The translations under genes and the position numbers were made by a program. This document shows positions 6,717 to 64,000 of a DNA stretch of 64,000 nt, in pieces; within the stretch, counting starts at the first letter, position 1; the number at the start of each line of letters is the position of its first letter. Source of the stretch: Arenicellales bacterium (GTDB lineage Bacteria; Pseudomonadota; Gammaproteobacteria; Arenicellales; Poriferihabitantaceae); assembly GCA_963693025.1 (NCBI GenBank), contig OY843749.1, forward strand, positions 2,957,617 to 3,021,616, read 5' to 3'. Below the pieces are notes generated by a model. That model did not search any database. It was not told the origin of the DNA and saw nothing but the letters and a program-made list of their open reading frames with translations.

Positions 6717-6741
6717 AACCTCGCGGTTGATTTTAGTTGGG

Positions 6742-7775: not shown

Positions 7776-7797
7776 GCTCAGGCAATCAGAGGACAGG

Positions 7798-9884: not shown

Positions 9885-9954
9885 CGCGCCACAGGGATAC
9901 GATTTGCCCGAGACGGATTGGGAAAACTTAAACGGAACAAAGGAGGGATTTGCA

Positions 9955-13284: not shown

Positions 13285-13359
13285 AGGTGGTTGTTTTTTG
13301 TTTGTCAACTTTGCCTTGATAGTCCCCGGTATTTTTGATGCACGACTAAGCGAACGCCG

Positions 13360-15871: not shown

Positions 15872-15895
15872 AAGTGGGCGGATTAGCCGGGCGGA

Positions 15896-29896: not shown

Positions 29897-29904
29897 ATGC
29901 AACT

Positions 29905-30143
29905 CGTCATTCTCGAGCGTTAGTGTCCGTTGCCGCCGCGCTTTTTCTTTTAAGCGGCGGCTTACGGACACTTACGTCCTCGGGAATCTCCCTAAGGTTG
30001 GCACGGGCTTCGGTAAAGTCCACGGTAGCCTTAGGGAGATTCCCGAAGGCGATGAAAAATATGGTCGCCTAACGGCTCCCTATTTTTCTATCGTTCGAGA
30101 ATGACGAGTTGTGGGGGGCTCCCTGTTTTCTGCCGTTCGAGAC
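29905..30143. repeat. MITE-like repeat, copy 4 (core 29905-30106, S to T, plus extra partial T module)
   Basis: The 202-bp core is nearly identical to copy 2. It is followed by GGCTCCCTGTTTTCTGCCGTTCGAGACGA. Confidence 0.9.
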
Positions 30144-35684: not shown

Positions 35685-35926
35685 CGTCATTCCCGAACAG
35701 TAGAAAATAGGGAGCCCCCAACCCCGTCATTCTCGAACGATAGAAAAATAGGGAGCCGTTAGGCGACCATATTTTTCATCGCCTTCGGGAATCTCCCTAA
35801 GGCTGCCGTGAATTCCAACAAAGCCCGTGCCAACCTGATGGAGATTCCCGAGGACGCAAGTGTCCGTAAGCCGCCGCTTAAAAGAAAAAGCGCGGCGGCA
35901 ACGGACACTAACGCTCGAGAATGACG
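35685..35926. repeat. MITE-like repeat, copy 5 (extra T module 35685-35718 plus core 35725-35926, T to S)
   Basis: The termini and GCCGCCGC hairpin match the other copies. The right arm of the central hairpin is degenerate (TGATGGAGATTCCC). Confidence 0.9.
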
Positions 35927-36003
35927 GGTAGGGGGGATTTCCTCATCGTATTGCCCACCAACTTGATATACTCCCCTCCACCGGCGAGGACCCCCGGTCA
36001 ACC

Positions 36004-42296: not shown

Positions 42297-42536
42297 CGTC
42301 ATCGAGAGCGGTAGAAAACAGGGAGCCCCAAACCCCGTCATTCTCGAACGATAGAAAAATAGGGAGCGTCAGCGACCATATTTTTCATCGCCTTCGGGAA
42401 TCTTCCTAAGTCTACCGTGAATTCCAACAAAGCCCGTGCCAGTATTAGGAAGATTCCCGAGGACGCAAGTGTCCGTAAGCCGCCGCTTAAAAGAAGAAGC
42501 GCGGCGACTAACGGACACTAACGCTCGAGAATGACG
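42297..42536. repeat. MITE-like repeat, copy 6 (extra T module plus core 42336-42536, T to S)
   Basis: The architecture matches the other copies. The central hairpin arms read GGGAATCTTCCTAA (42396-42409) and TTAGGAAGATTCCC (42445-42458), a paired C>T/G>A change relative to other copies. Confidence 0.9.
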
Positions 42537-42765
42537 AGTAGTAGGCGCGCGGCGGTGGTAGGATGTGGCGTGTTGGGGTTGGGGGTGGCGCGGCGGTGGT
42601 TGTGGTGGCGCGAAGAAAGAAATACCGCATAGCCGCCAAGCGCCCACAGGTATATAATCCCTCATCAAACCACCGCCGCAACCCGCTTGCTTTTTCGGTG
42701 AACGGACAGCGAACGCCGCGTGTTGTCATACCGGTAATTAAATTTTGTTGAACGCGAACAGCACT

Positions 42766-44379: not shown

Positions 44380-44403
44380 CCGCCCGCCGCGCGACAACCA
44401 ACA

Positions 44404-46413
44404 ATGCCCATGACCCAAACGCACACGCCCGAATTACAATGGCACAAAATCGCCGACCTCGACGAGTTGCCCGAGGGCCGCGTCAAGACCGTAACCGCCG
44501 GCGCCAAGTCGATGGCGTTGACGCATGTCAACGGCGAATACACCGCGATGGACAACCACTGCCCGCATCAGGGCGGACCGCTCGGCGAGGGCTCCATTGA
44601 AGTCGGCAACGATGGCAAATGCTGGTTGCGTTGTCCGTGGCACGGCTGGGATTTTGACCCGCAGACCGGCAAGCCGCCCGGCGGACACGCGGACTCGGGG
44701 CAGACACTCTACGCGCTGGAAACCCGCGAAGACGGCATCTATCTCGGGCTGGAAGTTGAGCCGGAAAAAATCCCGACCATTTCCGATGTGATGGTGGAAA
44801 CCATGGTGAACTGGGGCGTGAAATCCGTGTTCGGCATGGTCGGGCATTCCAACCTGGGGCTCGCCGATGCGTTGCGCGTGCAAGAGGCGAAGGGCAAGGT
44901 CAACTACTACGGCATCCGGCACGAGGGCAGCGCCGCGTTTGCCTGCTCCGGCTACGCCAAAGCATCGGGCAAACCGGCGGCGTGCCTGACCATCGCCGGT
45001 CCCGGCGCAACCAATCTGCTGACCGGGTTGTGGGACGCCAAGGTGGACCGCGCGCCGGTGTTGGCGCTCACCGGTCAGGTCAATGTGCAGGTGTTCGGTC
45101 CCGGCGCGTTTCAGGAAATCGACCTCGCATCGGCGTTTGAATCGGTGGCGGAGTTTAGCCAAACCGTCTTGCACACCAGCAAGCACGGCGAGTTGATGAG
45201 CCTGGCGTGCAAGAACGCCATCGTCAACCGCCTGCCGGCGCATCTGATTTTTCCGGACGACGTGCAGACCATTGAAGCGGGCGCGAATGCCAAGGCGCAG
45301 GCGGGACATCCGCAGGGGCGTCTGGGCAATCCCGCTATCACGCCTTCCGAGGAGTCGGTGGCGCAGGCGGTCGCGCTGCTGGCGCAACATCGCAGACCCA
45401 TCATCATCGCCGGCTATGGCGCCAAGCACGCTATGCGCGAGGTCATTGCGCTGGCGGAAAAACTGGGCGCGCCAATACTCACCACCTTCAAGGGCAAGGG
45501 GCAAATTGCGGACGACCATCCGCTGGCGGCGGGCGTGCTCGGGCGGTCGGGAACGCCGATTGCGAGTTGGTTTATGAATGAATGCGATTTGATTCTGGCG
45601 TTTGGCTCGTCGTTTTCTAATCACACCGGCATCACCGAAAAACGCCCGATTATTCAGGTTGATTTTGAGCAGATGGCGCTCGGTAAATTTCATCCGGTGA
45701 CGCTGCCGGTGTGGGGCGAAATCGCCACCACCGCGCGCTTGCTCGGCGAGCGCATCCGAGTCGCCGGCAAAGTTGAAACCGTCGACCAACGCGATGAAGT
45801 CGCCGAGCGTTGGAAAATTTGGCGCAGCGAAAAACAAAACCGCCGCAGCGACGAGCGCGGCAAAGGCATCAACTCCGCCGTCATCTTCGATGCGTTGACG
45901 CGCTTGCTGCCCGGCGATGCAATCATTGCGGTCGATGTCGGCAACAACACCTATTCATTCGGCCGCTATTTTGAATGCGCGCAGCAGTCGGTGTTGATGT
46001 CGGGCTATCTCGGCTCCATCGGGTTTTCATTCCCCGCCGCGATGGGCGCGTGGGCGGCGACGCGGGATTGCGAAGAATTGCGCGGTCGTCCGGTGGTCTC
46101 AATCAGCGGCGACGGCGGCTTTGGGCAATACCTCGCGGACTTCACCACCGCCGTCAAATACAAAATGAACATCACGCACATCTTGCTGAACAACCACCAG
46201 TTGGGAAAAATTACCAAAGAGCAGCGCGCGGCGGAGTGGCAAGTGTGGCAGACCGCGTTGCATAATCCGAACTTCGCCGCGTATGCAAAGTTATGCGGCG
46301 CGTTTGGCGAGCGCGTGACGCAGCCCGGCAAGTTGGATGAAGCGGTAACGCGCGCGCTCGCCCACGACGGTCCGGCGCTGGTTGAAATTATTTCCGACCC
46401 GGATGCAATATAA
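44404..46413 (+). CDS. Rieske-like [2Fe-2S] domain fused to thiamine-diphosphate-dependent enzyme (acetolactate synthase/pyruvate oxidase-like)
   Basis: The N-terminus has CPHQGGPL...CPWHGW. The remainder has a ThDP-enzyme layout, including GDGGFGQY...NN (a ThDP-binding GDG-x-NN motif). Confidence 0.7.
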   Translation: MPMTQTHTPELQWHKIADLDELPEGRVKTVTAGAKSMALTHVNGEYTAMDNHCPHQGGPLGEGSIEVGNDGKCWLRCPWHGWDFDPQTGKPPGGHADSGQTLYALETREDGIYLGLEVEPEKIPTISDVMVETMVNWGVKSVFGMVGHSNLGLADALRVQEAKGKVNYYGIRHEGSAAFACSGYAKASGKPAACLTIAGPGATNLLTGLWDAKVDRAPVLALTGQVNVQVFGPGAFQEIDLASAFESVAEFSQTVLHTSKHGELMSLACKNAIVNRLPAHLIFPDDVQTIEAGANAKAQAGHPQGRLGNPAITPSEESVAQAVALLAQHRRPIIIAGYGAKHAMREVIALAEKLGAPILTTFKGKGQIADDHPLAAGVLGRSGTPIASWFMNECDLILAFGSSFSNHTGITEKRPIIQVDFEQMALGKFHPVTLPVWGEIATTARLLGERIRVAGKVETVDQRDEVAERWKIWRSEKQNRRSDERGKGINSAVIFDALTRLLPGDAIIAVDVGNNTYSFGRYFECAQQSVLMSGYLGSIGFSFPAAMGAWAATRDCEELRGRPVVSISGDGGFGQYLADFTTAVKYKMNITHILLNNHQLGKITKEQRAAEWQVWQTALHNPNFAAYAKLCGAFGERVTQPGKLDEAVTRALAHDGPALVEIISDPDAI

Positions 46414-46457
46414 ATTGCGGGAACACCCCAAGCGCTAAACGCGCCGCACTTCGAGCG

Positions 46458-47081
46458 ATGAACTACGAAACGATCACCGCCCTGACGGTCTTTGCGCTGG
46501 TCGCCGCCATGACACCGGGTCCCAATACCTTGATGCTGCTGACATCCGGCGCCAACTTCGGATTCAGGCGAAGCCTCCCGCACATGTCGGGCATCCTCGC
46601 CGGGTTTGCCCTCATGGTGGTGTTGGTGGGCATCGGCTTGATGCAGTTATTCAACGCCTTCCCGGTCAGTTATCTCGTGCTAAAGTTTGCCAGCATCGCC
46701 TACCTGTTGTTCCTCGCGTGGAAAATTGCGACCGCCTCCAAACCCGATGACGGCGGCGGTGGCGAGGGCGGCGAAATCGTGCAAGGCAAACCATTCACTT
46801 TCTTACAAGCCGCGCTCTTTCAATGGGTCAATCCCAAAGCCTGGGCGGCTGTGCTCGCCGCCCTCAGCGCCTACACGCCGCCGTCGCGCCCGCTATCCGG
46901 CGTCTTTCTGGTCGCGCTAATTTTCACGCTGGTGAACGTGCTGTCCGCTTGCACCTGGACGGTGGCGGGCGTGCAGGCAAGACGCTTGTTATCCGAGCCG
47001 TTGAAACTGCGCGTCTTCAACGTGACGATGGCGTTGTTGTTGGTCGCCACGCTGTATCCCATTTTGTTTAACCGCATTTGA
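46458..47081 (+). CDS. LysE/RhtB-family amino-acid exporter
   Basis: 207 aa with six hydrophobic helices, an N-terminal TPGPNTLMLLTSG motif and a WVNPKAW motif. Confidence 0.8.
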   Translation: MNYETITALTVFALVAAMTPGPNTLMLLTSGANFGFRRSLPHMSGILAGFALMVVLVGIGLMQLFNAFPVSYLVLKFASIAYLLFLAWKIATASKPDDGGGGEGGEIVQGKPFTFLQAALFQWVNPKAWAAVLAALSAYTPPSRPLSGVFLVALIFTLVNVLSACTWTVAGVQARRLLSEPLKLRVFNVTMALLLVATLYPILFNRI

Positions 47082-47088
47082 GCGCACG

Positions 47089-47408
47089 ATGACCGTCATC
47101 AACTTCATCCTCGCCGACGGCAGCCGCCACGCCGTTGAAGCCACCGACGGCGAAGTGGTCATGCGCGTCGCCGTGCGCAGCGGCTTCTCCGGCATTCTCG
47201 CGGAATGCGGCGGCGCGTGCAGTTGCGCCACCTGCCATGTGCATATCGACCCGTCGTGGGTCGACAAACTGCCGCCCAAAGACGAACTGGAAACCGAGAT
47301 GTTGGACTTTGCCGAAGGCGTGGACGCGACCAGCCGCCTCAGTTGCCAAATCAAAATCACCCCGGCGTTGGATGGTTTAATCGTCCACGTGCCGGAGTCG
47401 CAGTATTG

Positions 47409-47409
<1 letters not shown>
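47089..47409 (+). CDS. [2Fe-2S] ferredoxin, adrenodoxin/putidaredoxin type
   Basis: 106 aa with the cluster ligands in CGGACSCATCHV...SRLSCQI. Confidence 0.85.
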
Positions 47410-49391
<1,982 letters not shown>

Positions 49392-49484
49392 TAGTGCTAA
49401 AATTGCCGTTTGGCGATGCCAATTTTAGTGGTTTATCGAGCCGCCAAAAGCGTTATAGTGCTATCTCTAATATCGGATGACATA

Positions 49485-52319
49485 ATGAACACCATTCACA
49501 GTTTGTTAAGGAATAAGGTCGAGACATGGGTAAGACTGGAGAAAGAAAATAACCAATCTCTTGTCAAAAATATGCTTCAACACATTGACAAAGTCGGAAA
49601 GCTTCGCCCACCGCAGAAAGAAGCCATAGAAACCCACCTTTGGATTAAATTCGTGGGCAATAATAAAAAACTCTCTGATGTGGTAAGGAACGGGCTTTTA
49701 TATGACGATAGCGTTGCCATGACGTATGGAAATTATCTCACTTTCAAAAAAGGCGATTATGTTGCCCAATTCTTGAATCAATTCTTTCAAGATAACAGGT
49801 TAAAGAACCTGCACAAGGAACTCTTAAATGATCCAAATGGAAAAGAAATCAGTTGGAATTCCACGCTTGATGACTTGCTCCACAATTTCGAGTACCCAAA
49901 TTACCTCTACAGTCTTCCAATGGGGGCAGGCAAAACATTTTTAATGGCTTGTTTCATTTACCTTGATCTTTATTTTGCTACTTTATTCAAAGAAGATAAA
50001 AGATTTGCTCACAACTTCGTTGTTTTCGCGCCACACTCTGCAAAAACCGCAATCCTTCCATCCCTCCGAACAATCAAGGATTTCAACCCTGAATGGATAC
50101 TGCCAAAGAATGATGCCGATAAACTGAAACAAGTTATTTCTATTGAGATACTTGATAGTTTAAGTTCCAAAAGAAAAGACAAGTTGCATGGAAATAACCC
50201 AAACCTTGAAAAAGTAAATCGAATGAAACAGACAAAAGATTTTGGGCTTGTCTTTATAACCAACGCTGAGAAAGTAGTACTTGAAAAGTATGATGATAGG
50301 GATAAAGCGCTGGTAGATAGCCTTGAGAGAGGACAAGCAGATGCGCTTGATGCGCGCTCGATCGATGAAATAAAGAAATCGAATCAACTCAGAGAAGCAT
50401 TATCGCAGATACCAAATCTAACGGTAATACTTGATGAAGTGCACCATTCTTACGGAAGCACGGGAAACGGAGAGAAAAAACTGAGGCAGGCGGTCAATAT
50501 ACTAAACCAGCATAAACACATTAATACCGTTATCGGATTATCCGGTACACCCTACGTTAAAAGTGAAATTAAAGTTGCCGACAACAGTATACGATTAAGT
50601 CAGATACAAGACATAGTTTATAACTACCCCTTAAATATTGGCATTGGCAAGTTTCTAAAGAAACCTGTCATTAAAAAAGCAAGCGTAAGAGAAAAAGCAT
50701 TTATCCAACAGGCTCTTTCAGACTTTTTTAAGGATTATGACAAAAAGTATAAGGATGGAACAAAAAGCAAAATAGCTTTTTACTGTCCTTCGATTAAAAA
50801 ATTGAATGATGATATTCTTCCTGTCGTTCAGGAATGGTACCGCAAAAATCGCTCTAAAAAAGAAGAAGAAATATTTAGATATTATTCGAAAGTAAAAAAG
50901 GATAATAAGCAGTATGCGTTACCAAGAGATAGCCTTGCTATTTTCAACAATCTCGACAGACCATACTCAAAAAAACGGGTAATTTTATTGGTTGCAGTCG
51001 GCACGGAAGGTTGGGATTGCAGAAGTCTGACAGCGGTTGTATTGCCAAGACAAGACACGCCTAAGAATTTTGTATTGCAGACAGCTTGCAGATGTTTGAG
51101 AGAGGTTGATGATTCGGCGCACGAAAGTGCGCTTATTTATTTATCAGAAGAAAACCATGAAACTCTCGACAAAGAATTGAAGGAAAATTATCAGCTTTCA
51201 ATATCCGATTTCTCTGAAAGGAAAGAACAAACGATACAAGTTCAAGTTCGCAAACCAAAACTGGGAAAACTCAAATACAAGCAAATTGACACTCGTTACA
51301 AGATTGTCAAAAAAATGGCGCCCGACATAAAGAAAGAATTGACAAAGTTAAGATTTTCAAAATTGAAAAGCAAGTATAAGTATGACAAGAGCATCGTCTC
51401 CGGCACGATCGGTAAAACGGGGATAACAGGTGAGGTAGCAGCAGATCACATCAAGGAAAAAAGCAACGGCATGTTTTCTTTTGCAGAATTTATTTACAGT
51501 CTGTCTGCCAATACATATGCAAAGTTTAGCGAACACGAACTGGAGAGTAAGTATAAAGATGACCTTTCACAAATACATAAACAAATTTCTAGAAATTTGG
51601 AATGGATAAATTTAAATCCTTATATCGGATTAACTGATATTGTAAAGTTTATCGCGGCCAGTTTTATGGACAAGGTGGAATACACCAAAGATATTATAAA
51701 AAACGAAACTGAGATTGAACTTCTGGAGTGGGCAGGCACTGACAATGAGATGAGTTTCTTTTCTCCAACCGGATCAACTTATAAGTTTATGCCGAAAATT
51801 AGTATGGCGAATTATGGGGGAAATAGAGGCTACGGGAAACACCTAGAATATATGGAAGACGACTTTTTTGGAGAGAGCGGTATCGACCCACAGGACATCA
51901 GTTTTAATTACATTCCTTACAAAATGGACAGCGAATTTGAGCAAAATACTCTTGCGGAAATGTTGAAATTGGCTGAACTCAAGGGGCTTGAAATTTATTT
52001 TAACGGGTATAAAGATGAAAAACTGCAGTCATTTTGGATACAAACACCGCGAGGAAAATATACTCCGGATTTTTTGATATTGAAAAGAAAGGGGGGTAAA
52101 TACAGGAAAAACAGAAAGGCGATTATTGACAAGGTGTTTATTGTCGAGACAAAGGGGAAACCTTATTACAACGATGAATTTAAAGCGAAAGAGAAGTTTG
52201 TTAATGACGAGTTTTTGAGGCATAATGAGCACTTCGAATATCGTTGTTTCCTCGATGACGGAAAAAACGATTTCACAAAGCATCTTGGTAGATTTAAGAA
52301 ACTTTTGGAAAATTTCTAA
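49485..52319 (+). CDS. Type III restriction enzyme Res-like SF2 helicase-nuclease (island 2)
   Basis: Walker A SLPMGAGKTF, DEVH box (VILDEVHHSYG) and LSGTPY. The C-terminal PD-(D/E)xK-like motif is YTPDFLILKRK...VFIVETKGK. Line 50581-50640 has 18/60 G+C. ATG 49485 is preferred over TTG 49410. Confidence 0.8.
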   Translation: MNTIHSLLRNKVETWVRLEKENNQSLVKNMLQHIDKVGKLRPPQKEAIETHLWIKFVGNNKKLSDVVRNGLLYDDSVAMTYGNYLTFKKGDYVAQFLNQFFQDNRLKNLHKELLNDPNGKEISWNSTLDDLLHNFEYPNYLYSLPMGAGKTFLMACFIYLDLYFATLFKEDKRFAHNFVVFAPHSAKTAILPSLRTIKDFNPEWILPKNDADKLKQVISIEILDSLSSKRKDKLHGNNPNLEKVNRMKQTKDFGLVFITNAEKVVLEKYDDRDKALVDSLERGQADALDARSIDEIKKSNQLREALSQIPNLTVILDEVHHSYGSTGNGEKKLRQAVNILNQHKHINTVIGLSGTPYVKSEIKVADNSIRLSQIQDIVYNYPLNIGIGKFLKKPVIKKASVREKAFIQQALSDFFKDYDKKYKDGTKSKIAFYCPSIKKLNDDILPVVQEWYRKNRSKKEEEIFRYYSKVKKDNKQYALPRDSLAIFNNLDRPYSKKRVILLVAVGTEGWDCRSLTAVVLPRQDTPKNFVLQTACRCLREVDDSAHESALIYLSEENHETLDKELKENYQLSISDFSERKEQTIQVQVRKPKLGKLKYKQIDTRYKIVKKMAPDIKKELTKLRFSKLKSKYKYDKSIVSGTIGKTGITGEVAADHIKEKSNGMFSFAEFIYSLSANTYAKFSEHELESKYKDDLSQIHKQISRNLEWINLNPYIGLTDIVKFIAASFMDKVEYTKDIIKNETEIELLEWAGTDNEMSFFSPTGSTYKFMPKISMANYGGNRGYGKHLEYMEDDFFGESGIDPQDISFNYIPYKMDSEFEQNTLAEMLKLAELKGLEIYFNGYKDEKLQSFWIQTPRGKYTPDFLILKRKGGKYRKNRKAIIDKVFIVETKGKPYYNDEFKAKEKFVNDEFLRHNEHFEYRCFLDDGKNDFTKHLGRFKKLLENF

Positions 52320-52321
52320 CG

Positions 52322-54142
52322 ATGAAAAAATCGAAACCATACAACCTATCGCCGGCAAGAGGGCAAGCGCTTCTTAACTTTGAGGGTAGAAGGTTCCCTG
52401 ACAAACTAGATGTGTTTGAAACTGAAGTCATTGAAACAGTCCGAAAGAAACAGTCGAAAGCGCAGTCCTTGTTAAGCGAGGAAAGTGATTTAAATGCTGA
52501 TTTCAGGAATTTACTCATTCAAGGTGATTGTTTATCTGCTTGCGCCTATTTGAAGTCAAGGAGCATTAAGGTCGATTTAGTTTATATTGATCCACCGTTT
52601 GCAAGCGGAGCAAATTATGCCAAGAAGATTTACCTGCGTAATGGGGGCAAATCTCAGATCGAAGCGGACGACAATACTATTGGTGAAGAGGTGATGTATG
52701 GAGACATCTGGCAAAAAGAAGATTACCTTAATTGGTTGTATGAAAGATTGCTCGTAATTAAAGATGTTATGAATGAAACAGCAAGCATTTATGTGCATTT
52801 GGACTGGCATATTGGGCATTATGTAAAGATATTGATGGATGAAATATTTGGGGAGGAGAATTTTAGGAACGAGATTATTTGGCATTATCCGGATAACTTC
52901 CAAGGCAATGTAAACCGGTATCCTATTAACCATAATGTAATTTTTTATTATGTGAAAACAGCAGACAATTTTGTTTATAAAAGATTGCAAGAGAAATTGG
53001 ATAAAAAAGTAAAACGACCAACAAGAATATGGGATAAAACTACACAAAAACTAGAAATTGACCGCGATCATAACGGTGCTCCGGTATACAAAGAGTATAG
53101 TGAGAAATTTATTGATGATGTTTGGCGGATTGCACAAAGACCGGTTGTAGTGCCGGGTAATAAAGAACATACTGGCTATACAACTCAAAAACCTGAAGCT
53201 CTTTTAGAGCGTATCATCAAAGCATCGTCAGACGAAGGGATGATAGTTGCTGATTTCTTTTCCGGTTCTGGAACAACAACCAAAGTAACCAGCGATCTAA
53301 ACCGTAAATTCGTAGCTTGCGATATAGGCATCAATGCCCTGCAAACTACAAGAGATCGCCTTGTCAAGGCTGGGGCAAATTTTGATATATTGAAAATTAA
53401 TGATGGTTTACGCCTTTTCAGAAACCCAGCACAAACAACCGCAAAAATATTCAGCATCATTGATGGTTTCAGGTCCAGAACAGATTTGGATTTAAATGAC
53501 TTCTGGGATGGTGGTATCGCTCAGGCAAAAGGCTCCTACACCCCTGTAAAATTTTCAGGCATTCACGACAAACTCACCAAAGAACTCTTGGATGTATATC
53601 TGGAAGAAATCTATAAACTCGAAGACACCGACAGCGCCAGTGAAGTGGTTATTATTTATGCCCATAAAGATGTGGATATTGACCAAGCATCGTTGGATAA
53701 ACGACTCAAGAGAATTGCTAAAACAGAGATACAGGTAAAACTTGTTTCTTTGGATAGCCTGCTAGGTGAGAAAAAAGACGCTCTTTTCACGCCTGACAAC
53801 GCAGATATTAAAATAACCAAGAAAGGAAATAAATACAAAGTAGAAATCAAGAAATTTTACAGCCCTTACCTGAAAAATAAAATTGACGAGTACAACGCAA
53901 AGAAAGTGAAAAGTGGCACGATAGTAAAAATCGGCAATGCTGGATTAGAAATGATTGAAGCGGTGCAATTTGATACTACTTGTCGGAAAGTTTGGAAAAG
54001 CAACAGTGATTTAGAAGATAAAGCAGGCGTTAAAGACAGAGTCAAAGCCGTTTATACACTCGCCACGAGCAACTTTAGAATGAAAATTAGAAACATAGCA
54101 GGTGATGAAATAATAATTGATAGCAAGGAAATAAGCGGCTAG
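52322..54142 (+). CDS. beta-class amino (N6-adenine/N4-cytosine) DNA methyltransferase, Type III Mod-like (island 2)
   Basis: Motif IV VYIDPPFASGANY precedes motif [24 protein letters not shown] is present. It starts 2 nt after the res stop. Confidence 0.85.
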   Translation: MKKSKPYNLSPARGQALLNFEGRRFPDKLDVFETEVIETVRKKQSKAQSLLSEESDLNADFRNLLIQGDCLSACAYLKSRSIKVDLVYIDPPFASGANYAKKIYLRNGGKSQIEADDNTIGEEVMYGDIWQKEDYLNWLYERLLVIKDVMNETASIYVHLDWHIGHYVKILMDEIFGEENFRNEIIWHYPDNFQGNVNRYPINHNVIFYYVKTADNFVYKRLQEKLDKKVKRPTRIWDKTTQKLEIDRDHNGAPVYKEYSEKFIDDVWRIAQRPVVVPGNKEHTGYTTQKPEALLERIIKASSDEGMIVADFFSGSGTTTKVTSDLNRKFVACDIGINALQTTRDRLVKAGANFDILKINDGLRLFRNPAQTTAKIFSIIDGFRSRTDLDLNDFWDGGIAQAKGSYTPVKFSGIHDKLTKELLDVYLEEIYKLEDTDSASEVVIIYAHKDVDIDQASLDKRLKRIAKTEIQVKLVSLDSLLGEKKDALFTPDNADIKITKKGNKYKVEIKKFYSPYLKNKIDEYNAKKVKSGTIVKIGNAGLEMIEAVQFDTTCRKVWKSNSDLEDKAGVKDRVKAVYTLATSNFRMKIRNIAGDEIIIDSKEISG

Positions 54143-54196
54143 AAAACCATTTCCGCGGTTGAGAAGAGCAGTAGGTCACCTTAAGTCGAGCGACAC

Positions 54197-55342
54197 ATGA
54201 CAAAAAATTTTTTCAACGAAAGCACGAAACAGTCACGGGTCAAGTCTGCCATCGTTGCCAAATATTTTACAGCTTGGGCAAGGATAATTATTGGGGCCCA
54301 AAACAAGAATCCAGCGCAAGAGGATAAAAGAATTGCTTACATAGATTTGTTTGCCGGGCCGGGTCGATATTCAGATGGCACAACTTCAACGCCTTTGCGG
54401 ATTTTGGGAGTGGCCATTAAGAACGAAGATATTCGTCAAAGACTCGTAACATTTTTCAATGATAAAGATCAAGAGCAAATGAATTCGTTAGAGAAATCTA
54501 TCGGTCAATTATCGGATGTAGATTCACTCAAACATCCTCCAGAAATTTCAAATCAGGAAGTTGATGAAACTATCGCTAATACGTTTGAAAATAAAAAACT
54601 CGTTCCCACACTCTTTTTCTTCGACCCATGGGGTTATAAAGGGGTTACTTTGCGCTTGCTTAAGTCTGTACTGAAAGATTGGGGTTGTGATTGCATTTTT
54701 TTCTTTAACTATAATCGTATCAATATGGGGCTGAATAATCCTATGGTCAAAGAACATATGAATATGCTTTTTGGTGCGGAGCGTGCAGACAAATTAAGGA
54801 GGAAATTAAGTAGACTTTCCACGACTAAACGGGAATCGACTATCCTCGATGAATTGTGCGGTGCGCTACACGAATCTGGACCAGAATATGTATTACCGTT
54901 TTGCTTCAAGAATGACCGGGGGACAAGAGTGAGTCATTACCTAATATTTGTGAGTAAGAATTTCAAAGGTTATGAAGTTATGAAGGAAATTATGGCCAAA
55001 GAATCTTCGACAATTGTACAGGGTGTTGCCAGCTTCGAGTATAATCCAGCGGCGACACAAGTGCGGCAGGTGCTATTCTTTCCGTCACGCCCCCATGAAG
55101 CGTTGCGTCCTCTTGATGATTTGGGTGATATGCTTCTCAAAGAATTTTCTGGAGAAACAATCACGATGCGACAAATCTACAAACGACACAGCGTTAATCG
55201 CCCTTACATCAGTGCAAACTATAAGGAAGTACTCCAACAATTGGATCAACAACAAAAAATTACAGCACCTAAACACAAAAAAGGTACATTCGGAGATGAT
55301 GTTCCCGTAACATTTCCTCGATTAAAAGGAAATGAGCAATGA
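54197..55342 (+). CDS. tcmP: three-Cys-motif partner protein TcmP-like
   Basis: The N-terminus [23 protein letters not shown]...[11 protein letters not shown] and the later [10 protein letters not shown] match my memory of the TcmP family. It is followed, with an ATGA overlap, by a Gp37/Gp68-type gene, the defining context of that family. Confidence 0.65.
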
Positions 55343-56058
55343 GCGGAACATCGTCAATCGAATGGACCGAGACTACTTGGAATCCAGTCACAGGCTGTAC
55401 CAAAATCAGCGCCGGATGCAAGCATTGCTATGCTCATCGTATGGCTTTTCGGCTTCAGGCTATGGGTAATAAACGCTACCAGAATGGGTTCAAAATTACC
55501 CTCCACGACGACCTGATTGATGCGCCGAGAAGGTGGCGTTCATCACGTATAATTTTTGTCAACTCCATGAGCGATTTGTTTCATAAGGACGTGCCAACCG
55601 AATTCATTCAGCGCGTATTCCAAACGATGAACGATTGCCCGCAGCATACCTTTCAAGTATTAACCAAACGCGGCGGTCGCTTGAAAACTCTGGCGAACAA
55701 GCTCAACTGGACACCGAATATCTGGATGGGTGTCAGTGTAGAGGACGAACGTGTTTATCACCGCATCCATGACTTGCTTGAAGTGCCCGCTCATGTCCGT
55801 TTTCTTTCCTGCGAACCGCTAATTGGGCCAACGGAAAATCTGCCGCTTGATGGCATCCACTGGGTGATTGTTGGCGGTGAATCGGGACCTAAAGCAAGAC
55901 CGATGGAAAAAACTTGGGTTTGGTCAATCAGAAAACAATGTCGTGCTGTTGATGCCGCTTTCTTTTTCAAGCAATGGGGTGGTGTTCAAAAGCATCGGCA
56001 CGGGCGTCTGCTTAACAATCGGACATACGATGAAATGCCGGAAACTCAACCGGCATAG
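55339..56058 (+). CDS. phage Gp37/Gp68-family protein (DUF5131), three-Cys motif
   Basis: [26 protein letters not shown] (C-x6-C-x2-C) and the later [10 protein letters not shown]...FFFKQWGG are as I remember for PF07505 proteins. Confidence 0.7.
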
Positions 56059-56062
56059 CTGA

Positions 56063-56086
56063 GCGCGTTTTACGCGCGTTTGTTTT
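56063..56086 (+). terminator. rho-independent terminator candidate ending island-2 operon
   Basis: GCGCG-tttta-CGCGC followed by GTTTGTTTT, 5 nt after the stop of the DUF5131 gene. Confidence 0.5.
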
Positions 56087-56217
56087 AATCGGATTTCGAT
56101 TTTCTCCGTTGCCATCGTCAGTCAGAGGTTTTGAACACTAATGCCATCTGTGTCAAAAAGTTATGGAACTATCAAGCAAAGTTGATAAGAACAACAACTC
56201 CAACAAAAACAAAACCT

Positions 56218-56555
56218 CGTCATTCACAACAACCTCGTCATTCTCGAGCGTTAGTGTCCGTTGCCGCCGCGCTTTTTCTTTTAAGCGGCGGCTTACCGGA
56301 CACTTGCGTCCTCGGGAATCTCCCTAAGACTGACGCGGACTTGAACAAAGCGAGCGAAGCAGGCGGCGGGTAAGCCGCCATTCCCGCAGTCTTTTGAGCG
56401 GGAATGACGTTGTTTGGGCTCAGCGCTAGTCTTAGGGAGATTCCCGAGGACGTAAGCGCCCGTAAGTCGCTGCGCGACAACGGGCGCTAACGCTCGAGAA
56501 TGACGAGGTTATTGTGAATGACGGAGTAGGGGGACACTAACGCTCGGGAATGACG
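56218..56555. repeat. MITE-like repeat, copy 7 (composite: S end, nested insert, second S-like end, extra end modules)
   Basis: The core is 56236..56505. It has a 19-bp central hairpin, GGGAATCTCCCTAAGACTG/CAGTCTTAGGGAGATTCCC, enclosing an insert shared with copy 3. The extra modules reach 56555 and overlap the stop of the PglB-like gene. Confidence 0.85.
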
Positions 56556-58846
56556 CCTACTTCCCACAACGACACCGTCGGGCTCTGCACAAAAGCGTGA
56601 CGGAAGTAAGCGGGGTTCATTGTGTGGCGGATGAATAGGCGGTTGATTAGTGACTCGGCTACTTCGTGGGTCATTAGCATTCCGAATGCGGCGCTGGGTA
56701 TCCATTCGAAGTGCAGGCCGCCGGGGTGTCCGTAGTCGGTTTCTTCTAGCGCGTGTCCGGTGTGGGTGATGAATTTGTTGAGGGGTTGGCGGATGGTTTC
56801 GTCGTTGACCGAGAACACGGTGTTTTTTCCCTCGCGCACGTCGAAGGAGAAGTCGCCGCCGGTCATCAGCCTGTCGCCTTGCAGGCGCACGTTGTGGAAG
56901 AGCAGATGCGCCGGCGGCAAGCCCTTCCCGCGCGCCGCGTCCCAGGTGCCATACCAGAACCATTTGCTGGTTAGTTGCTCGTGATAGATGGACAGGAAAA
57001 TCGGCTCGGTGTTGTTGGGAAACAGGAAAGCGCGGCACGCTTCCACGGTGGCGAACTCATCGCCGTCGTTAGCGGTGCTTGATGCCGGCGCATCGGCAGC
57101 GAGTTGGTGCAGGCTTTGCGCGGCTGCATCGGCGGGCTTGCCAAACCATTCCCGCATCCAGCGCAAGCCCGTGTCGGTCGAGCCGGCGAGTTGGTTGATT
57201 TTCCGCAAGCCGCTCAGACCGCGTTGCGCGTAAAAACGAATGAAGTGGCGCGCGAACGCCGGGTCGTTGCTCGCCAGCGGCATATTCGCATAGACCTGCC
57301 GCTCGCCGCTCATAAACTCGCCATCCGCAATCACGCGCCGCCCGGTGTAATACATAATCGGATAGCCGAGCGACCACGGCGCCCACAGGAGCGCGTCGGG
57401 CGGGGTGTGCGCGCGAATGGCTTGGATGACCGGCAGCGCCAGCGTGATGCGCGGCGACAGCACCGATGAATCCAACTCGCGCGCCGCCGCCGGCACGATG
57501 GCGAGCGCCGCGCCCGCCGCGAAGAGGGGAGCGGCGAGCCAGTGCGCGGGCATTTCCAACCCAAACCGCAACCCCAATCGCCGCGCATGGCGGGCGGCGA
57601 GGGCGAGGATGAAGCCGGTGCCGATGCCGAGCGGCGGTCCCCAGAACAGCAGCCCGCGCTGGCCGAAGTAGAACGCGCTGAGGGCGAGCAGCACCGGCAC
57701 GGCGAGCGCGGTGAATGCCGCTTTGGGTTGCGCGCACGCCAGCCACGCGAGACCGGCGATGCCGAGTAGCAGGCTCGCGAGGAGACCCGTGGTGTTGTTA
57801 ATCAGCGATTGCAGACCGAAGCCGCCGAGTTCGGCGATGTCGGTCGCCACGTTGGGAAAGCCGCCGCCACCGCCACCGCTTTTGATGCCGTAGAACAAGA
57901 TTTCCCGGATGTTGCGCACGAGCGCGACCAGTTGTTCGCCCCACACGCCCGCCACGACGATGAGCAGAACCAACCCGAGCGCGGCGGCGGCGAGCGCTTC
58001 ACCGCGCGGCGGGCGGTAATACCACGCGGCGCTGATGAGCAACGGCGTGAGGCAAATCACCGCGACCACTTCCGGCGCCAGGTCCCACCACAGCGCGAAG
58101 AGTGCGGCGTTGAGCGCGGCGCCGAGCAGATAGAAATACCGCCGGCGGTCGCGGCATAAGCCGAAGCCCAGCGCCGCCGCCTGCGCGCCCAGGGTGAAGG
58201 CGACGATGAGGCAGTCGGTGTCGAATGCGCCGAGGCGCGTGCGCGTGACGAACCACTGGGTGTTGAGCGCAACCAGCGTGGCGACCAGCGCGGCGAAGGG
58301 CGGGATGCGCAACTGCCGGCAGAGCATCAGCACCGGAATGGACAGCAACAGGGCGAGGGCAATCGGCAGCAGCACGGCGGTCCACGCCAGCGACAGGGGA
58401 GTGGCGGCGCTGACCGTGGCGGTCATCCACGAGAGCAGCGGCACCGGCGCAGGGCGCGGCGGATGCTCCGGCGTGGTTCGCAATTCGTCGGTGGGCGCAT
58501 AGCGGTCGTCGCGATAGTCGCGCGCCAAGCGCAGGTAGTGGTAGCCGTCGGCGTTCAGCAACACCGGCTGGTCGTCAAAGAAATACCGCTCGCGATGGTC
58601 TTGCCACGCGCCGTAATCGGCAACGCGCAATGCGGCGCTGATGCCCAGCACCAGTAATAGGAGCAGCCACCATGTCGTGCGTGCGAGGCGGGTGGTGCTG
58701 AGCTCAGCGGTGGCGGTGGCGGTTGGCGACGACGGTTCCGGCGGCAACGGCGGCAACGTCGGCTTAGCGTCAGCCACCGCCGCCGTGTCGGTTACCGCCG
58801 ACTTGCGACCCGGCTTTCTTTTCCGGTGGGAGCGATTGGATGCCAA
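56537..58846 (-). CDS. STT3/PglB-family oligosaccharyltransferase homologue with non-canonical WWDYG region
   Basis: Four segments parallel Campylobacter PglB. [24 protein letters not shown] parallels [34 protein letters not shown] parallels [19 protein letters not shown] parallels [32 protein letters not shown] aligns with [22 protein letters not shown]. The protein has about 13 TM helices plus a periplasmic domain. Confidence 0.75.
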   Translation of the reverse strand: [769 protein letters not shown]

Positions 58847-58881: not shown

Positions 58882-60288
58882 TCACGCCTTCCACAATCCT
58901 TCGCGGGTCAGGTCGTCCATCACTTCAACGATGGACTCGCGCAACACCGACACCAGCGTATCGATTTGCTCGCGTGTCAATATCAGCGGCGGGGACAGCA
59001 CATTCAAGTGACCGATGGGGCGCACCAGCACGCCGCGTTTTTCCGCCGCATCGGCGATGCGATTGCCGACTTCAACCTCGTCCGCCAGCAGCGCTTTGCT
59101 GTGCTTGTCGGCGACGTTCTCCACGCACATCATAAAATGACTGCCGCGAATGTCGCCGACTATGTCGAGGTCGGCGAGGGTCGCAAGTTGCGCTTCCAGA
59201 TAGGGTCCGACTTCGCGCACATGTCCGCAAATATCTTCGCGCTCCATAATCTCAATATTTTTGAGCCCGGCGGCGCAGCACACCGGATGCCCCGAGTAGG
59301 TGAAGCCGTGGGTGAGCAATGCGCCTTTGGAGCGGGGGGCGCTGATGACGTCGTAGAACTCGTCGGACATGATGGTGGCGGACAGCGGGGCGTAGGCGGA
59401 AGACAACCCTTTGGCGCTGGTGATTAAGTCGGGCACGATGCCGAACACGTCTTGCGATGCGAAGAAGTGCCCGAGGCGCCCGAAGGCGGTGACGACTTCG
59501 TCGGCGATATACAGCACGCCGTGGCGGCGGCACACTTCCAGCATGCGGCGGTGGTAGTCGGGCGGGGCGACGATGACGCCGCCGGCGCCCATAATCGGCT
59601 CGGCGATAAAAGCGGCGACGTTGTCGGCGCCGAGCGCGGCGATTTTGTTTTCAAACTCATCGACCAGTTCATCGCAGAACTGCGCCGGCGACAAGCCGTC
59701 GGGGCGGCGGTAAGTGTTGGGCGATGACACGCGCTCAATCAAGCCGTCGTCGATGATGTCAAAACCTTGATGGTCGAACGCCACGCCGGTCAGCGACATC
59801 GCCAAATAAGTGCTGCCGTGATAGCCGTCGTGGCGCGTGATGATTTTCTTTTTGGATTGTTTGCCGAGCCGGTTGAAGTAGAAATGAACCATGCGAATGG
59901 CGGTGTCGTTAGCCATCGACCCGCCGGTGCCGAACTGAATGTGGTTGAGCCCGGCGGGGGCGAGCGAAGCCAGTTTATGCGCCAACTCGGCGGCGGGGAT
60001 GGAGGTGTGCGCGCCGAACGAGGAGTAATAAACCATCTTCCCCGCCTGCGCCGCCATCGCCTCGGCAATCTCGGTGCGCCCATAACCCACATTAACACAC
60101 CACAACCCGCCAATCCCATCGAGATATTTATTCCCAACCGAATCACAAACATAAGCCCCCTCAGCATCAGTCAAAACCAACGACCCCTTCTCCTCAAGCC
60201 CGGCAAAATCAGTCCACGGATGAAGATGATGCGCGCGGTCTTTACGCTGGATTTCCTGAGTGTCGTAGGGTGGGGTGGGTGTTTTCAT
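58882..60288 (-). CDS. class-III (omega) aminotransferase, SpuC-like polyamine/beta-alanine:pyruvate transaminase
   Basis: DRAHHLHPWTDF, GLWCVNVGYGR, AAFIAEPIMGAGGVIV and IADEVVTAFGRLG closely parallel P. aeruginosa SpuC as I recall it. Confidence 0.8.
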   Translation of the reverse strand: MKTPTPPYDTQEIQRKDRAHHLHPWTDFAGLEEKGSLVLTDAEGAYVCDSVGNKYLDGIGGLWCVNVGYGRTEIAEAMAAQAGKMVYYSSFGAHTSIPAAELAHKLASLAPAGLNHIQFGTGGSMANDTAIRMVHFYFNRLGKQSKKKIITRHDGYHGSTYLAMSLTGVAFDHQGFDIIDDGLIERVSSPNTYRRPDGLSPAQFCDELVDEFENKIAALGADNVAAFIAEPIMGAGGVIVAPPDYHRRMLEVCRRHGVLYIADEVVTAFGRLGHFFASQDVFGIVPDLITSAKGLSSAYAPLSATIMSDEFYDVISAPRSKGALLTHGFTYSGHPVCCAAGLKNIEIMEREDICGHVREVGPYLEAQLATLADLDIVGDIRGSHFMMCVENVADKHSKALLADEVEVGNRIADAAEKRGVLVRPIGHLNVLSPPLILTREQIDTLVSVLRESIVEVMDDLTREGLWKA

Positions 60289-60304: not shown

Positions 60305-62101
60305 TTATTTGGTGATAATCGTTTCTTCTCCCAGCATATCTACAATCTTTACTGCGATTTTAGCTTTGGCGCTGGGAAGGGACAACGTATACCGGCCTTT
60401 GATGAAGTCGCTTTTCTTTTGCGGGATGTCACTTTCCACGATGTTGAAGTGCTTGTTATTGTAGTTGGTGTCAATCAGTACGCAGTCGATTTGCGCGCGG
60501 AAGTCATCGATATGCTCATCAAAAAGCGTTCGGTCAATATTTAATCTAGCAAGGATGGTCGGGCTGATGTACTGCTCAATAGTTACGGTTGCCCGTTTCC
60601 CTCTTTTTGTGATTTTCACTTCTGATTCTGCGGGTTGATTGGTTATCATACCGTCCTGTTGAATATCGTGGACGGTGATTTTATTGATGGGACTCTTCTC
60701 CTCGGAAAGTTCGTTGATTATTTCCAATTCGGAACCGTTGCAGAACACTGCAATATCTCGAATATCGTCCGCCCGGTTGTTGGCAATTTCATCTTTGATG
60801 ATTTGTATATCCAATCGAGTCAACGGTCTGTTCAGGTCAATAACTTTTGCCAGCAAACCACCGACCGTTCCATCAAAGAACATATCCTGACGATCTATTT
60901 GAATGCCGTATTTGGAGATAATTATTTTCTTGAGATCGTTCTGTTTGGCACAGTCGTAATTGTTCACCCGATAGTGGATAAGTCCATGCCCATTTTTTTC
61001 CGTCAGTTTGTCGTTTTTTTCTTTGATTATGCTTTGTAATCTGTTGATGGTGGTTTGGATTGCGCCTTTGTTCAAATCAGCCATAATCCAGCGACGGCCT
61101 AATTTTTCCGTGACTGCGGCGGTTGTACCGGAGCCACAGAAGCAGTCAAGGATGATAGAATTTTCGTTGCTAGATGCTTTGATTATGCGCTCTAAAAGGG
61201 CTTCTGGTTTTTGGGTTGGGTAAGGTGTTCTTTCGAGGGCCACAGGATTTATCATTGAAATCTCCCAAAAATCACTAGTTCCTTCTTCAAATTTCCATAC
61301 ATCTGGCATAGGAACGCCTTTCGTCGGTTCTTTAGTTTGAATTGACACTCTTTGCCCATATTCATTAACGACACTTTTCCACGCAACTCCTTGAGCACTG
61401 GATTGTTCGCTTTTTGGAATAAACATTTGATTGAAAATATGAGACCCTTTTGTTTTGGCATACCAAAACACATTGTCGTAATTACTTGCAAATGATTTGG
61501 CTTCAATATTCCAGCGTCTGTAATACCATGCGATATTATTGCAAAAATTCTCCTCCCCAAAAACTTCATCTAATAAAAATCGCAAGTGATGATTTTTGCG
61601 CCAATCGCAATGCAAATAAATACTGCCTTGATCGCTCAACAACTCCCGTAGCAAAATCAATCGCTCATACATGAACTGTAAATAATTATCATTTGCCCAA
61701 ATGTCCTCATACTGCGCTTGTTCTACTCTTGAGTAACCTTCACTCGCAATTTCGTTACTATTTCCGTTACCATTTCCATTGCCTACACCGCGCAACTTGA
61801 CCTTGCGCACATAATCCGCGCCACTGTCAAATGGTGGATCAATATAAATTAAATCAATCTTTCCCCTAAACCCCGAAATCAAAAGGGAAGACAGAATTTC
61901 TTTGTTATCGCCGTGAAGCAGTAGATTGTAATTATTTTCGGCAAATTGCTTGTAAGAGGGCTCCGCGGGTGGATTGCTTATGCCAACTCCTTCACACAAT
62001 TGTGCGGGAAAATGCTTGACAACATCAAGCGGCTTTTTGCCTACCCAATGCAATAATGGACGACCTTTGACGGAACTAATTTTAAGCGACTTCTTTTTCA
62101 T
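60305..62101 (-). CDS. beta-class amino DNA methyltransferase, Type III Mod-like (island 3, paralogue of 52322..54142)
   Basis: Motif [15 protein letters not shown], then [17 protein letters not shown] and motif [10 protein letters not shown]. The region is AT-rich. The start overlaps the res stop (ATGA). Confidence 0.85.
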
Positions 62102-64000
62102 TTCCTCACCCAGTCCATAACTGGCTTGATGTCTTCGATACCGATAGCGTTTGTCGAAGTATAGACGATGTTGTACTTGAACCTGTCCGGTTGTATTTTT
62201 TGCAACCTCTCGACCGCCTTTCTCTTGGCTTCCACGATAGCGTCCTTGCGTCTACTTTCGTCTTTAACCTCAACGATGTAAAATTCCCCAGTCTTTTTTA
62301 CAATCACGAAATCGGGAAAATAGCGGTGATACCGCTTGTCCTCACCCAGATATTCAAAGTGAAAATCGGTTTTTCTCGAATCGGTCATTCCACCGGTGAA
62401 TAAGAACGCTTCCACATCATCGGGGTCAGTATTCAGCACGGATAAAACCTGTTGAAATAATGAACGCTCTGGCTGGCTGTCAAAGTTGTAAGGATCATAG
62501 TGAAAACTCAGATTATGCTTGTCCGAATACTGGCCGCTTTCAGCAAACAGGTCATTTTGCTTCATTTCATCGTATGTTTTTTCCAGCAAGCGCAAATTAT
62601 GAACATAAACATCATTTGCATCTTTCTCAAAAACATCCTCCCCGTTCTCATCCTGCATTCGAATTAACGCCATCACTTCTGTTACCGTATCTTTAACTGT
62701 TTTGTAGTTCGCTTGCTGTTGTTCGACCTGACGAAAAAGTCCGTATAGATGATTATCCGGTATTTCCCCTTTCGGGTAAAAGTTGTTCAGTTTTTCCAAT
62801 ATCCACATCACAGGCAAATGATATCGCGATGCGATTTTCCAAGCGGCGGTGTGGCAATCTGTTCCTCGCTTTTCCGCAGGCAACTCCATGGTTTCGCCTG
62901 TCGGCAACAATATTTCCCTCGGTCCGCTGAAATCCGGTGTTAATATGCTACGCAGAATTCCGGGCATTTGTTGCGCTTTTGGTTTTGTTAAAGCGACCTT
63001 CCCGCATTTTGCGTCATCCCTTTCCGCTCTTTTCACCGTACGGGTGATTTCCAGTTTCGGTAGTTCGGTTTTGAGGATGCGCAGAGTGACGGTTTTTTTG
63101 TTGCGTTCCCTAAATCTAAGATCATCCAAATTGGAACGAAAATTTTCCTGCAACTGTTTGTTTAGCGTGTTGGAATTTCCGGAGTCGAGAAAGATTTTTG
63201 CCGAATGTGTGTTGCCCGGAACCTGCCGCAAACATCGAGTTGCCGCTTGTAAGACGTAGTTGTTGCTTGATGTTTGTTCTTTAATTAACGCACAAGCAAA
63301 CAAACTTGGGCAATTCCAGCCTTCCACCCCTTTGCTGATAAGTAAAATCACCCGCTTTTGATTGCCGGGATTATTAAGCCGTTTGAATTCGTCTATCTGG
63401 GCGGCGGCGGATGTTTGCGTATTTACCAGTATCTGTGCAGCATTTTCCCCGACTTTGGCCATCGCCAATTCAATCAGCGGTCGGGAGTTGTCCAAGTGCG
63501 CTTGCGTTTTGAAATAGAAAGCAATTTTTGCTTTCGCTCCGTTGGGAAGTGAAACATCGCCGTAATTATTGAAAAATTCCTCTATGATGTCGGCAAATAC
63601 GATTTTTTCTGAGCGTTTTTTCAAGTTGTATTGATGAATGCCATTATTCAGGTCTTTCAAAATGTTGTCTTTGATGCCTTCCCCAAGTCCATACCAGACA
63701 ATCACCTCTTTCAAGGGTTGCTTTTTATAGTATGGCGTTCCGGTTGTGTTGATTACTGCAATTATCTGTGTTTGTTGATGTATGTAATCAATTGTTTCCC
63801 GCACTCGTTTTATTTTGTCAAAAGTATTTCCATAGGTATGGTGGGCTTCATCGGAAAACACGCCGAGATTCGGCAGACTTGCAATTTTTTGCAATCTTAA
63901 ATTTGCTTGCGCTTCTTTGTGCTCAAAAGCTAGCGCGCTCTGATTGCTTCTTTGCTTGGCGCGCAGGCTGATTTTTTCGGTGTTGGTTACAATCAAGTTA
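62098..64000 (-). CDS. Type III Res-like SF2 helicase-nuclease, 5'-truncated by window edge (island 3)
   Basis: DEAH box ([12 protein letters not shown]), TTGTPYY, and the C-terminal PD-(D/E)xK-like [22 protein letters not shown]. Walker A is not seen, so the N-terminus must lie beyond 64000. Confidence 0.8.

Follow-up and report, generated by a model that had tools for sequence, protein, structure and literature searches.

A Type III-like Res-Mod module next to a TcmP/DUF5131 pair in an AT-rich island of an Arenicellales bacterium

The stretch of DNA analysed here, called the window throughout, comprises 64,000 nucleotides of an Arenicellales bacterium (contig OY843749.1, positions 2,957,617 to 3,021,616). 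In its 49.4-56.2 kb block, four co-directional open reading frames (ORFs) on the plus strand occupy the whole gap behind the acetoacetyl-CoA synthetase gene: They encode a restriction-modification (R-M) module, Res-Mod, and a second pair of proteins, TcmP and DUF5131 (Gp37/Gp68). A preliminary description of the sequence had regarded the second pair as an extension of the R-M operon, i. e. as a candidate composite defence or DNA-modification system. Our surveys demonstrate that the two modules are independent of each other, and we consider it likely that the block represents two independent mobile two-gene cassettes that were brought together by recombination at a strain-variable hotspot located after the acetoacetyl-CoA synthetase gene.

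Four genes in an AT-rich island

The AT-rich character of the block is evident: The island has a G+C content of 39.5% as compared to 60.4% and 63.6% in the left and right flanks, respectively, and the counts made by hand for the preliminary description (18/60 for positions 50581-50640 and 49/60 for positions 5761-5820) are exact. The G+C content at third codon positions (GC3) is 0.39 for res, 0.37 for both mod and tcmP, 0.50 for the DUF5131 gene and 0.75-0.82 for the flanking genes, and the block was correctly judged to be foreign and horizontally acquired. The spacing also agrees to the nucleotide, with 2 nt (CG) between res and mod, 54 nt between mod and tcmP, and an ATGA overlap of 4 nt between tcmP and the DUF5131 gene. 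Moreover, the identities proposed for the four genes hold, as the profiles N6_N4_Mtase, TIGR04474 and PF07505 give clear matches and ResIII and RE_endonuc lie just above their cut-offs.

Since the four ORFs fill the island, there is no space for an integrase or transposase gene, and the absence of both had been stated correctly. Neither a tRNA nor an Rfam element marks the insertion site or lies near the island (the nearest tRNA is at 36004), and the DNA uptake sequences of Neisseriaceae and Pasteurellaceae are not present. The hairpin noted at the left junction (49397-49428, 9+4 bp) is real, with a folding energy of -14.2 kcal/mol and z = -2.3, and it is probably the present terminator of the acetoacetyl-CoA synthetase gene upstream. 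A hairpin followed by a T-run does exist behind the last gene as described, but it is statistically ordinary (z = -0.45); the island contains 7 terminator-like sites as compared to 8.6 expected, and neither promoter-like nor terminator-like sites in the island exceed their number in shuffled sequence. As these sites occur at chance frequency, they are uninformative on the operon structure.

The miniature inverted-repeat transposable element (MITE) that had been placed at the right edge turned out to be a multicopy inverted-repeat element with at least seven copies in the window (Table 1). The MITE-like element is ~210-310 bp long, and its most frequent 12-mer, CGTCATTCTCGA, occurs 15 times. 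Further copies are located at positions 10871-11272 and 14254-14346 of L169, a metagenome contig whose source is very closely related to the host and is considered below as the sister strain.

Table 1. Features of the island and copies of the inverted-repeat element in the window
Feature	Position	Strand	Remarks
Res, alternative starts	49410 (TTG) or 49485 (ATG)-52319	+	ORF list
Res1, 944 aa	49485..52319	+	SF2 ATPase and C-terminal PD-(D/E)xK nuclease motifs
Mod1, 606 aa	52322..54142	+	beta-class amino-methyltransferase, DPPF before FSGSG
Spacer between the modules, 54 nt	54143..54196		neither terminator-like hairpin nor notable structure (z = +0.4)
TcmP, 381 aa	54197..55342	+	class I SAM-methyltransferase fold (predicted) and GMT-like winged helix
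DUF5131 (Gp37/Gp68), 239 aa	55339..56058	+	PF07505; six invariant Cys; GGESG
Left junction	49384..49484		sister-strain homology stops at 49383; hairpin 49397-49428
Hairpin and T-run, terminator-like	56060..56092	+	3' of DUF5131
Multicopy inverted-repeat (MITE-like) element	56212..56523		right edge; end of sister-strain synteny
MITE-like copies in the window	1436-1653, 13075-13286, 15519-15877, 29900-30109, 35725-35929, 42336-42547, 56212-56523		

The homologues of Res have 941-945 amino acids (aa), and the ATG at 49485 is therefore the start of the protein. All motifs that had been quoted for Res and Mod are present: In Res, PMGAGKT (Walker A) is found at aa 145, DEVHH at aa 317, TPDF at aa 860 and VETKG at aa 887, and PMGAGKT, DEVHH, SGTP, QTACRCLR and PDF...VETKG are invariant in 24 homologues. 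Res barely passes the Pfam thresholds, with 23.3 bits for ResIII (cut-off 22.5) and 23.6 bits for RE_endonuc (cut-off 23.4), its match to BPTD_3080 of NCBIfam is partial (46 bits, cut-off 800), and distant homologues on plasmids are annotated as TnsA-like proteins or DEAD helicases. The REase_III models of PADLOC gave no match, and a search of the PDB with the Res alignment profile returned no chain at E <= 1, EcoP15I Res included. In Mod, DPPF (aa 90) precedes FSGSGTT (aa 313), and this is the order (DPPY/F before FxGxG) of the beta-class amino-methyltransferases of Type III R-M systems. Mod matches PF01555 (N6_N4_Mtase) at 1.2e-44 and the MTase_III model of PADLOC at 2.5e-56, and among the solved structures EcoP15I Mod is closest to it (3.5e-18).

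The module resembles the EcoP15I-type systems in having a beta-class N6_N4 amino-methyltransferase of ~600 aa (EcoP15I Mod has 644 aa) and a Res protein of ~940 aa, as compared to ~970 aa for EcoP15I Res, that carries the motifs of an N-terminal DEAH-type superfamily 2 (SF2) ATPase and of a C-terminal PD-ExK nuclease. It differs in that Res has no detectable sequence similarity to EcoP15I Res (profile search, E > 1) and in the gene order. Whereas mod is located upstream of res in classical Type III systems, res comes first here, as had been recognized before; related loci share this order in 70 of 71 cases, as does a second copy in the window. Res-Mod is thus a widespread Type III-like R-M family with a fixed res-then-mod order, and as Res escapes the REase_III models, such systems may be under-counted. 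In the presumed mechanism, Mod would N6-methylate adenine in a host-specific site, and Res would use its ATPase and nuclease parts to cut unmodified DNA following ATP-dependent communication. In Type III systems, the ATP-dependent cleavage requires two unmethylated sites in inverse orientation, and methylation affects a single strand.

The second copy is a paralogous res-then-mod module in another low-GC block (60305-64000, minus strand). Mod2 (60305-62101, minus strand, 597 aa, PF01555 at 1.3e-48) shares 29% identity with Mod1; Res2 (62098-63996, minus strand) precedes it with an overlap of 4 nt, is truncated by the end of the window, is 30% identical to Res1 and carries a DEAHH motif as well as a nuclease region with PDF. 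The two divergent copies of the family are convergent, with the mod genes ~6 kb apart. A different arrangement is seen at the closest relatives of the Res-Mod module (L085-L087, 74% identity): Here, a conserved gene for a protein of 376-401 aa without a Pfam hit spans ~1.2 kb upstream of res and ends 8 nt before it, and the window has no counterpart of this gene. It may encode a third component in this sub-clade. The three contigs stop within ~40 nt after mod.

The Res-Mod and TcmP/DUF5131 modules are independent

We have surveyed the possible linkage of the two modules from both sides. On the Res side, we collected 84 loci from many phyla whose Res homologues show 48-75% identity; at least 2 kb of sequence are available beyond Mod in 35 of them and upstream of Res in 44. 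Where there is room behind Res (71 loci), the next gene encodes a co-diverging homologue of Mod in all but one case, with a median gap of 26 nt. Searches with hidden Markov models and tblastn found neither TcmP nor DUF5131 at any of the 84 loci. The TcmP side also comprises 84 loci, of which species-representative genomes contribute 80; the others are three contexts from metagenomes and the contig L001. DUF5131 is present in 82 of these loci and adjacent to TcmP in all but one of them, in tandem (in either order) or convergently. None of the 82 independent TcmP loci has a homologue of Res1, and neither has any other locus of this set except L001. No further case of the four-gene order was met than this contig of 5.2 kb, which is 100% identical to the window and therefore does not provide independent evidence. 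Thus, the recurrent co-occurrence in independent genomes by which a composite system can be recognized was found from neither side.

The neighbourhood of the TcmP/DUF5131 pair points in the same direction. A Pfam census of 253 neighbouring proteins of at least 250 aa, encoded within 3.5 kb of the pair at about 70 non-redundant loci, yielded hundreds of different families, and many of the proteins have housekeeping functions (e. g. tRNA synthetases, ABC transporters, subunits of respiratory complexes). All counts were taken from the top 25 families by frequency of each of three batches and are lower bounds: There were at least four N6_Mtase, two N6_N4_Mtase, one C5 methylase and six ResIII proteins as well as at least about seven ATPases of the AAA_15/AAA_21 families. 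Using phmmer, we found R-M-like genes at a distance of up to 10 kb from the pair in 12 of the 82 loci, and these are of four kinds: Type I-like, Type IIG-like, large fused N6_N4, and C5. Overall, any R-M gene is nearby at about 10-15% of the TcmP loci. For a random gene, an R-M neighbour is expected in roughly 1% of cases, so that R-M genes occur near the pair about ten times as often as by this rough estimate, which fits an embedding in defence islands rather than a dedicated partnership. The preliminary description had made its proposal depend on such a survey: A modest enrichment of the defence-island type does exist, but the R-M types are heterogeneous and there is no specific linkage.

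The pair has already been catalogued. PADLOC-DB v2 holds it as the two-gene candidates PDC-M30 and PDC-M41, which were proposed by 'guilt by embedding' and are unvalidated (PMC10855318). Both proteins match the PADLOC models of these candidates, with 1.1e-28 for TcmP and PDC-M30A, 9.4e-122 for DUF5131 and PDC-M41B, and 7e-116 for DUF5131 and PDC-M30B. As in the catalogued candidates, both the A and the B models are matched and the genes are adjacent, here with the 4-nt overlap; there is no structural difference, but in the window an R-M operon lies directly next to the pair, and the DUF5131 gene is recombinant. Both modules are thus of known kinds, a Type III-like R-M system and PDC-M30/M41. 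Profile searches found TcmP in 3,506 clusters at 50% identity, and DUF5131 forms more than 8,000 clusters at 90% identity. Full-text searches of the literature revealed no experimental work on either family, in agreement with the earlier statement that neither has an experimentally defined role.

Cargo replacement at the DUF5131 junction

The contig L169 of the sister strain shows how the arrangement may have come about. Positions 44401-49383 of the window correspond to L169 1-4983 with 99.86% identity, and the homology ends 8 nt before the stop codon of the acetoacetyl-CoA synthetase gene. At the same chromosomal site, L169 carries another cargo (4984-10000, 48-50% G+C) that encodes a 380-aa protein, a 708-aa HerA-like DUF87 ATPase and a 367-aa N6_N4 methylase and that may be another methylase-associated defence system. 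The homology resumes 17 nt inside the DUF5131 gene and extends up to the inverted-repeat element. Per 100 nt from position 55339 onwards, the identity between the window and L169 is 70, 72, 83, 95, 96, 97, 99, 98 and 93%, i. e. the 5' ~300 nt of the gene are 70-83% identical and the sequence from ~55630 on is 95-99% identical, indicating a crossover near 55,600-55,630. The DUF5131 gene of the window is thus chimeric relative to the L169 copy. The hairpin with the T-run lies within the shared segment of 93-99% identity and therefore belongs to the resident DUF5131 copy.

A related event is seen in two other contigs. L170 corresponds to L171 with an R-M-like insertion of 6.5 kb, located 214 nt upstream of a DUF5131 gene that has no TcmP partner (L170 850-7346 as compared to L171 9710-9787). 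The insertion encodes a 1475-aa fusion of Mrr_cat, helicase and N6_Mtase/Eco57I parts and two unknown proteins, and L171, the uninserted form, has a backbone like that of a plasmid or an integrative and conjugative element (NikA, ParA-like, VirB11-like, Fic). A degraded tcmP upstream of DUF5131 in L169-L171 was looked for and not found. Two candidates for a cryptic TcmP homologue, gp38 of phiE125 and a 266-aa protein encoded in L170 ahead of the DUF5131 gene, were rejected with hhalign probabilities below 1%.

Taken together, L169 and the L170/L171 comparison identify the region just upstream of DUF5131 as a recurrent landing place for R-M-like cargo in this lineage, and the cargo at the site studied here has been replaced as at a hotspot. 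The operon-like compaction in the window is the product of this cassette replacement. An incoming AT-rich fragment with Res, Mod, TcmP and the 5' end of DUF5131 would have replaced an earlier cargo, with the right-hand crossover falling within the resident DUF5131 gene. The comparison thus documents that homologous recombination swaps defence cargo and that one of the crossovers fell into an accessory gene of high conservation. The absence of a specific linkage, the status of PDC-M30/M41 as stand-alone two-gene candidates, and the cassette replacement in the sister strain all speak against the idea that the pair is an accessory of the R-M operon.

Three observations weigh against two independent cassettes. 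First, Res, Mod and TcmP are alike in GC3 (0.37-0.39) and lie on one strand. Second, the gap between mod and tcmP has just 54 nt and no terminator. Together, these features indicate that Res-Mod-TcmP probably arrived as one incoming fragment, and judged from the gene layout the three genes may be co-transcribed. Finally, a methyltransferase-containing cassette is located upstream in five of the six contexts examined among the closest relatives (the window, L002, L004, L169 and L170, but not L171); L169-L171 originate from a single metagenome and are thus not independent of one another.

The TcmP/DUF5131 pair is a self-contained cassette of bacteria, phages and prophages. DUF5131 is found in 181 records of cultured phages, TcmP adjoins it in 44 of 80 DUF5131 loci on viral contigs, and the neighbours on these contigs are baseplate, tail, terminase, portal, RusA and lysozyme/lysis genes. 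In the Gordonia phage ThankyouJordi, a TcmP homologue annotated as 'methyltransferase' directly follows the immunity repressor, and DUF5131 is convergent to it, three genes from the integrase. In the Gordonia phage Bakery (L253, genes 63-64), DUF5131 and a C5 DNA methylase share a start/stop base, and in prophiGD11-3 (L255, genes 31-32) DUF5131 is followed by a gene for a protein like 3'-phosphoadenosine-5'-phosphosulfate (PAPS) reductase. The annotation of the latter DUF5131 protein as 'RNA methyltransferase' looks like a mis-annotation.

Given this distribution, the pair might primarily be cargo of phages and modify DNA or RNA in the interest of the mobile element, for example by evasion of restriction or protection of tRNA; here, it would be a stranded remnant without a defence role, and the resident DUF5131 would mainly serve as a conserved homology arm for cargo exchange. 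This would agree with the chimeric DUF5131 gene of the window, with the TcmP-less DUF5131 that borders variable cargo in L169 and L170 and is also present in the uninserted L171, and with the unusual conservation of DUF5131 (70-91% amino acid identity among the closest relatives found). However, both ORFs are intact and have kept all residues that are invariant in their families, PADLOC lists the pair on account of its defence-island surroundings, and the pair of ThankyouJordi sits in the immunity region expressed by the prophage, a typical place of genes that protect the lysogen and one that suggests a link to defence. We regard this reading as rather unlikely.

A true four-gene composite, in which the pair provides Res-Mod with a further DNA modification, another effector or a means of self-protection, would account for the compact co-directional genes, the matching GC3 of Res, Mod and TcmP, and the terminator-free gap, as well as for the roughly tenfold excess of R-M genes near the pair over the rough expectation and for the methyltransferases that lie upstream of DUF5131 in L002, L004, L169 and L170 or overlap with it in Bakery. 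It is nevertheless improbable: The two modules fail to meet in either survey, the R-M genes near the pair are of unrelated types and 85-90% of the pairs have no R-M neighbour, the pair resides among structural and lysogeny genes of phages, and the DUF5131 junction is a recombination scar. The failure of the composite-defence idea spares cloning work aimed at a synergy that has no comparative support. Two independent cassettes joined at a cargo hotspot thus remain the preferred interpretation of the block.

TcmP and DUF5131 as candidate nucleic-acid-modifying enzymes

TcmP matches TIGR04474 with 205.4 bits (1.5e-60, cut-off 53), and its C-terminal part (aa 285-357) is a GMT-like winged helix. 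Across 26 sequences that are about 60% identical, the motifs DLFAGPG, FNDKD and DPWGY do not vary. Neither the methyltransferase models of Pfam nor a search of the PDB with the alignment profile gave a match. The AlphaFold2 model (pTM 0.81) has a Rossmann-type methyltransferase fold followed by the winged helix; its top Foldseek matches in the PDB (E = 4.5e-5, probability 1.0) are to Trm1 and RlmJ, and S-adenosylmethionine (SAM) methyltransferases make up most of the 50 matches listed. The predicted fold has the elements of the class I SAM methyltransferases: Motif I is rich in Gly, motif II is acidic, and the loop of motif IV is present. DP[FW]G may resemble motif IV of the guanine-N2 methyltransferase Trm1. 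From the model, TcmP is predicted to be a SAM-binding protein of the methyltransferase fold with a nucleic-acid-binding winged helix, and the latter suggests DNA rather than tRNA as the substrate.

DUF5131 matches PF07505 with 333 bits (1.3e-99, cut-off 28.9). Its six invariant cysteine residues are C20, C27, C30, C100, C158 and C201, and a GGESG motif is located at aa 179. The SFLD lists DUF5131 as a radical SAM subgroup, and in the table of RadicalSAM.org it shares a megacluster with spore photoproduct lyase (PMC9477430). In common with the radical SAM proteins of the SplB/PA0069/Rv2578c group and with the 'radical SAM mobile pair' (TIGR04470/TIGR04471), DUF5131 has a Cys triad near the N-terminus, with the context GC...GC..CYA, as well as a GGE-type motif, and it matches TIGR04471 at 1e-21; the model is beta/alpha-barrel-like. 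However, the triad is spaced as CX6CX2C rather than CX3CX2C, the radical SAM family PF04055 gave no hit at E <= 0.01, and there are three further invariant cysteines. The structural match to radical SAM enzymes is weak: The best Foldseek match has E = 0.009, lipoyl synthase is found at 0.06-0.14, and the cluster loop is poorly modelled; a PDB search with the sequence gave matches at chance level only. As the fold matches only generic TIM barrels (E >= 0.009), we claim no structural proof of membership. A natural partner swap is provided by L025 (10001-11899), where the gene behind tcmP encodes, in the place of DUF5131, a canonical radical SAM protein (PF04055, PA0069/Rv2578c type), and hhalign aligns the two partners in the Cys motif only (E = 8.7e-5, probability 60%). 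Judged from its motifs, DUF5131 looks like a radical-SAM-type Fe-S enzyme.

The fold of TcmP, the radical-SAM-like features of DUF5131 and the phage contexts lead us to propose, with low confidence, that the pair is a two-enzyme module for nucleic acid modification in which a SAM-dependent and a radical SAM step follow each other. TcmP and DUF5131 would act in sequence on one base, probably of DNA, and the resulting modification may serve defence borne by prophages or islands, self-marking, or else anti-restriction. In wyosine biosynthesis, the class I guanine methyltransferase Trm5 is followed on the same base by TYW1/Taw1, which belongs to the radical SAM enzymes and holds a second cluster ligated by Cys. 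Apart from the shared folds, the succession of TcmP and DUF5131 may be likened to this pathway in its logic only. The contexts in Bakery and prophiGD11-3 lend anecdotal support to a DNA-modification setting. For a large family without known biochemistry, the fold and motif data thus provide a concrete hypothesis that can be tested.

It is tempting to speculate even further: DUF5131 could be a DNA-acting radical SAM enzyme for bases that were premarked by a neighbour of the methyltransferase fold, usually TcmP and sometimes a DNA methylase as in Bakery and perhaps L169, and the product would be an undescribed DNA hypermodification that is coupled here to Res-Mod as a second layer of self-marking. 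We give this extended scenario little chance. Finally, the pair might itself be an R-M-like defence system in which TcmP marks self DNA and DUF5131 damages unmarked DNA by radical chemistry; the two-gene logic of a methyltransferase-fold protein and a potentially DNA-acting radical SAM enzyme, the megacluster shared with spore photoproduct lyase and the defence-island embedding would suit such a role, but DUF5131 often occurs without TcmP and would be toxic if it were a nuclease-like effector, and as we know of no precedent, we consider this highly improbable.

Two further genes lie between the two low-GC R-M blocks of the window. A GC-rich gene on the minus strand (56537-58846) encodes a 768-aa membrane protein with an N-terminal domain like that of the STT3/PglB oligosaccharyltransferases (2.2e-9), and it is followed by an aminotransferase-like gene (58882-60288).

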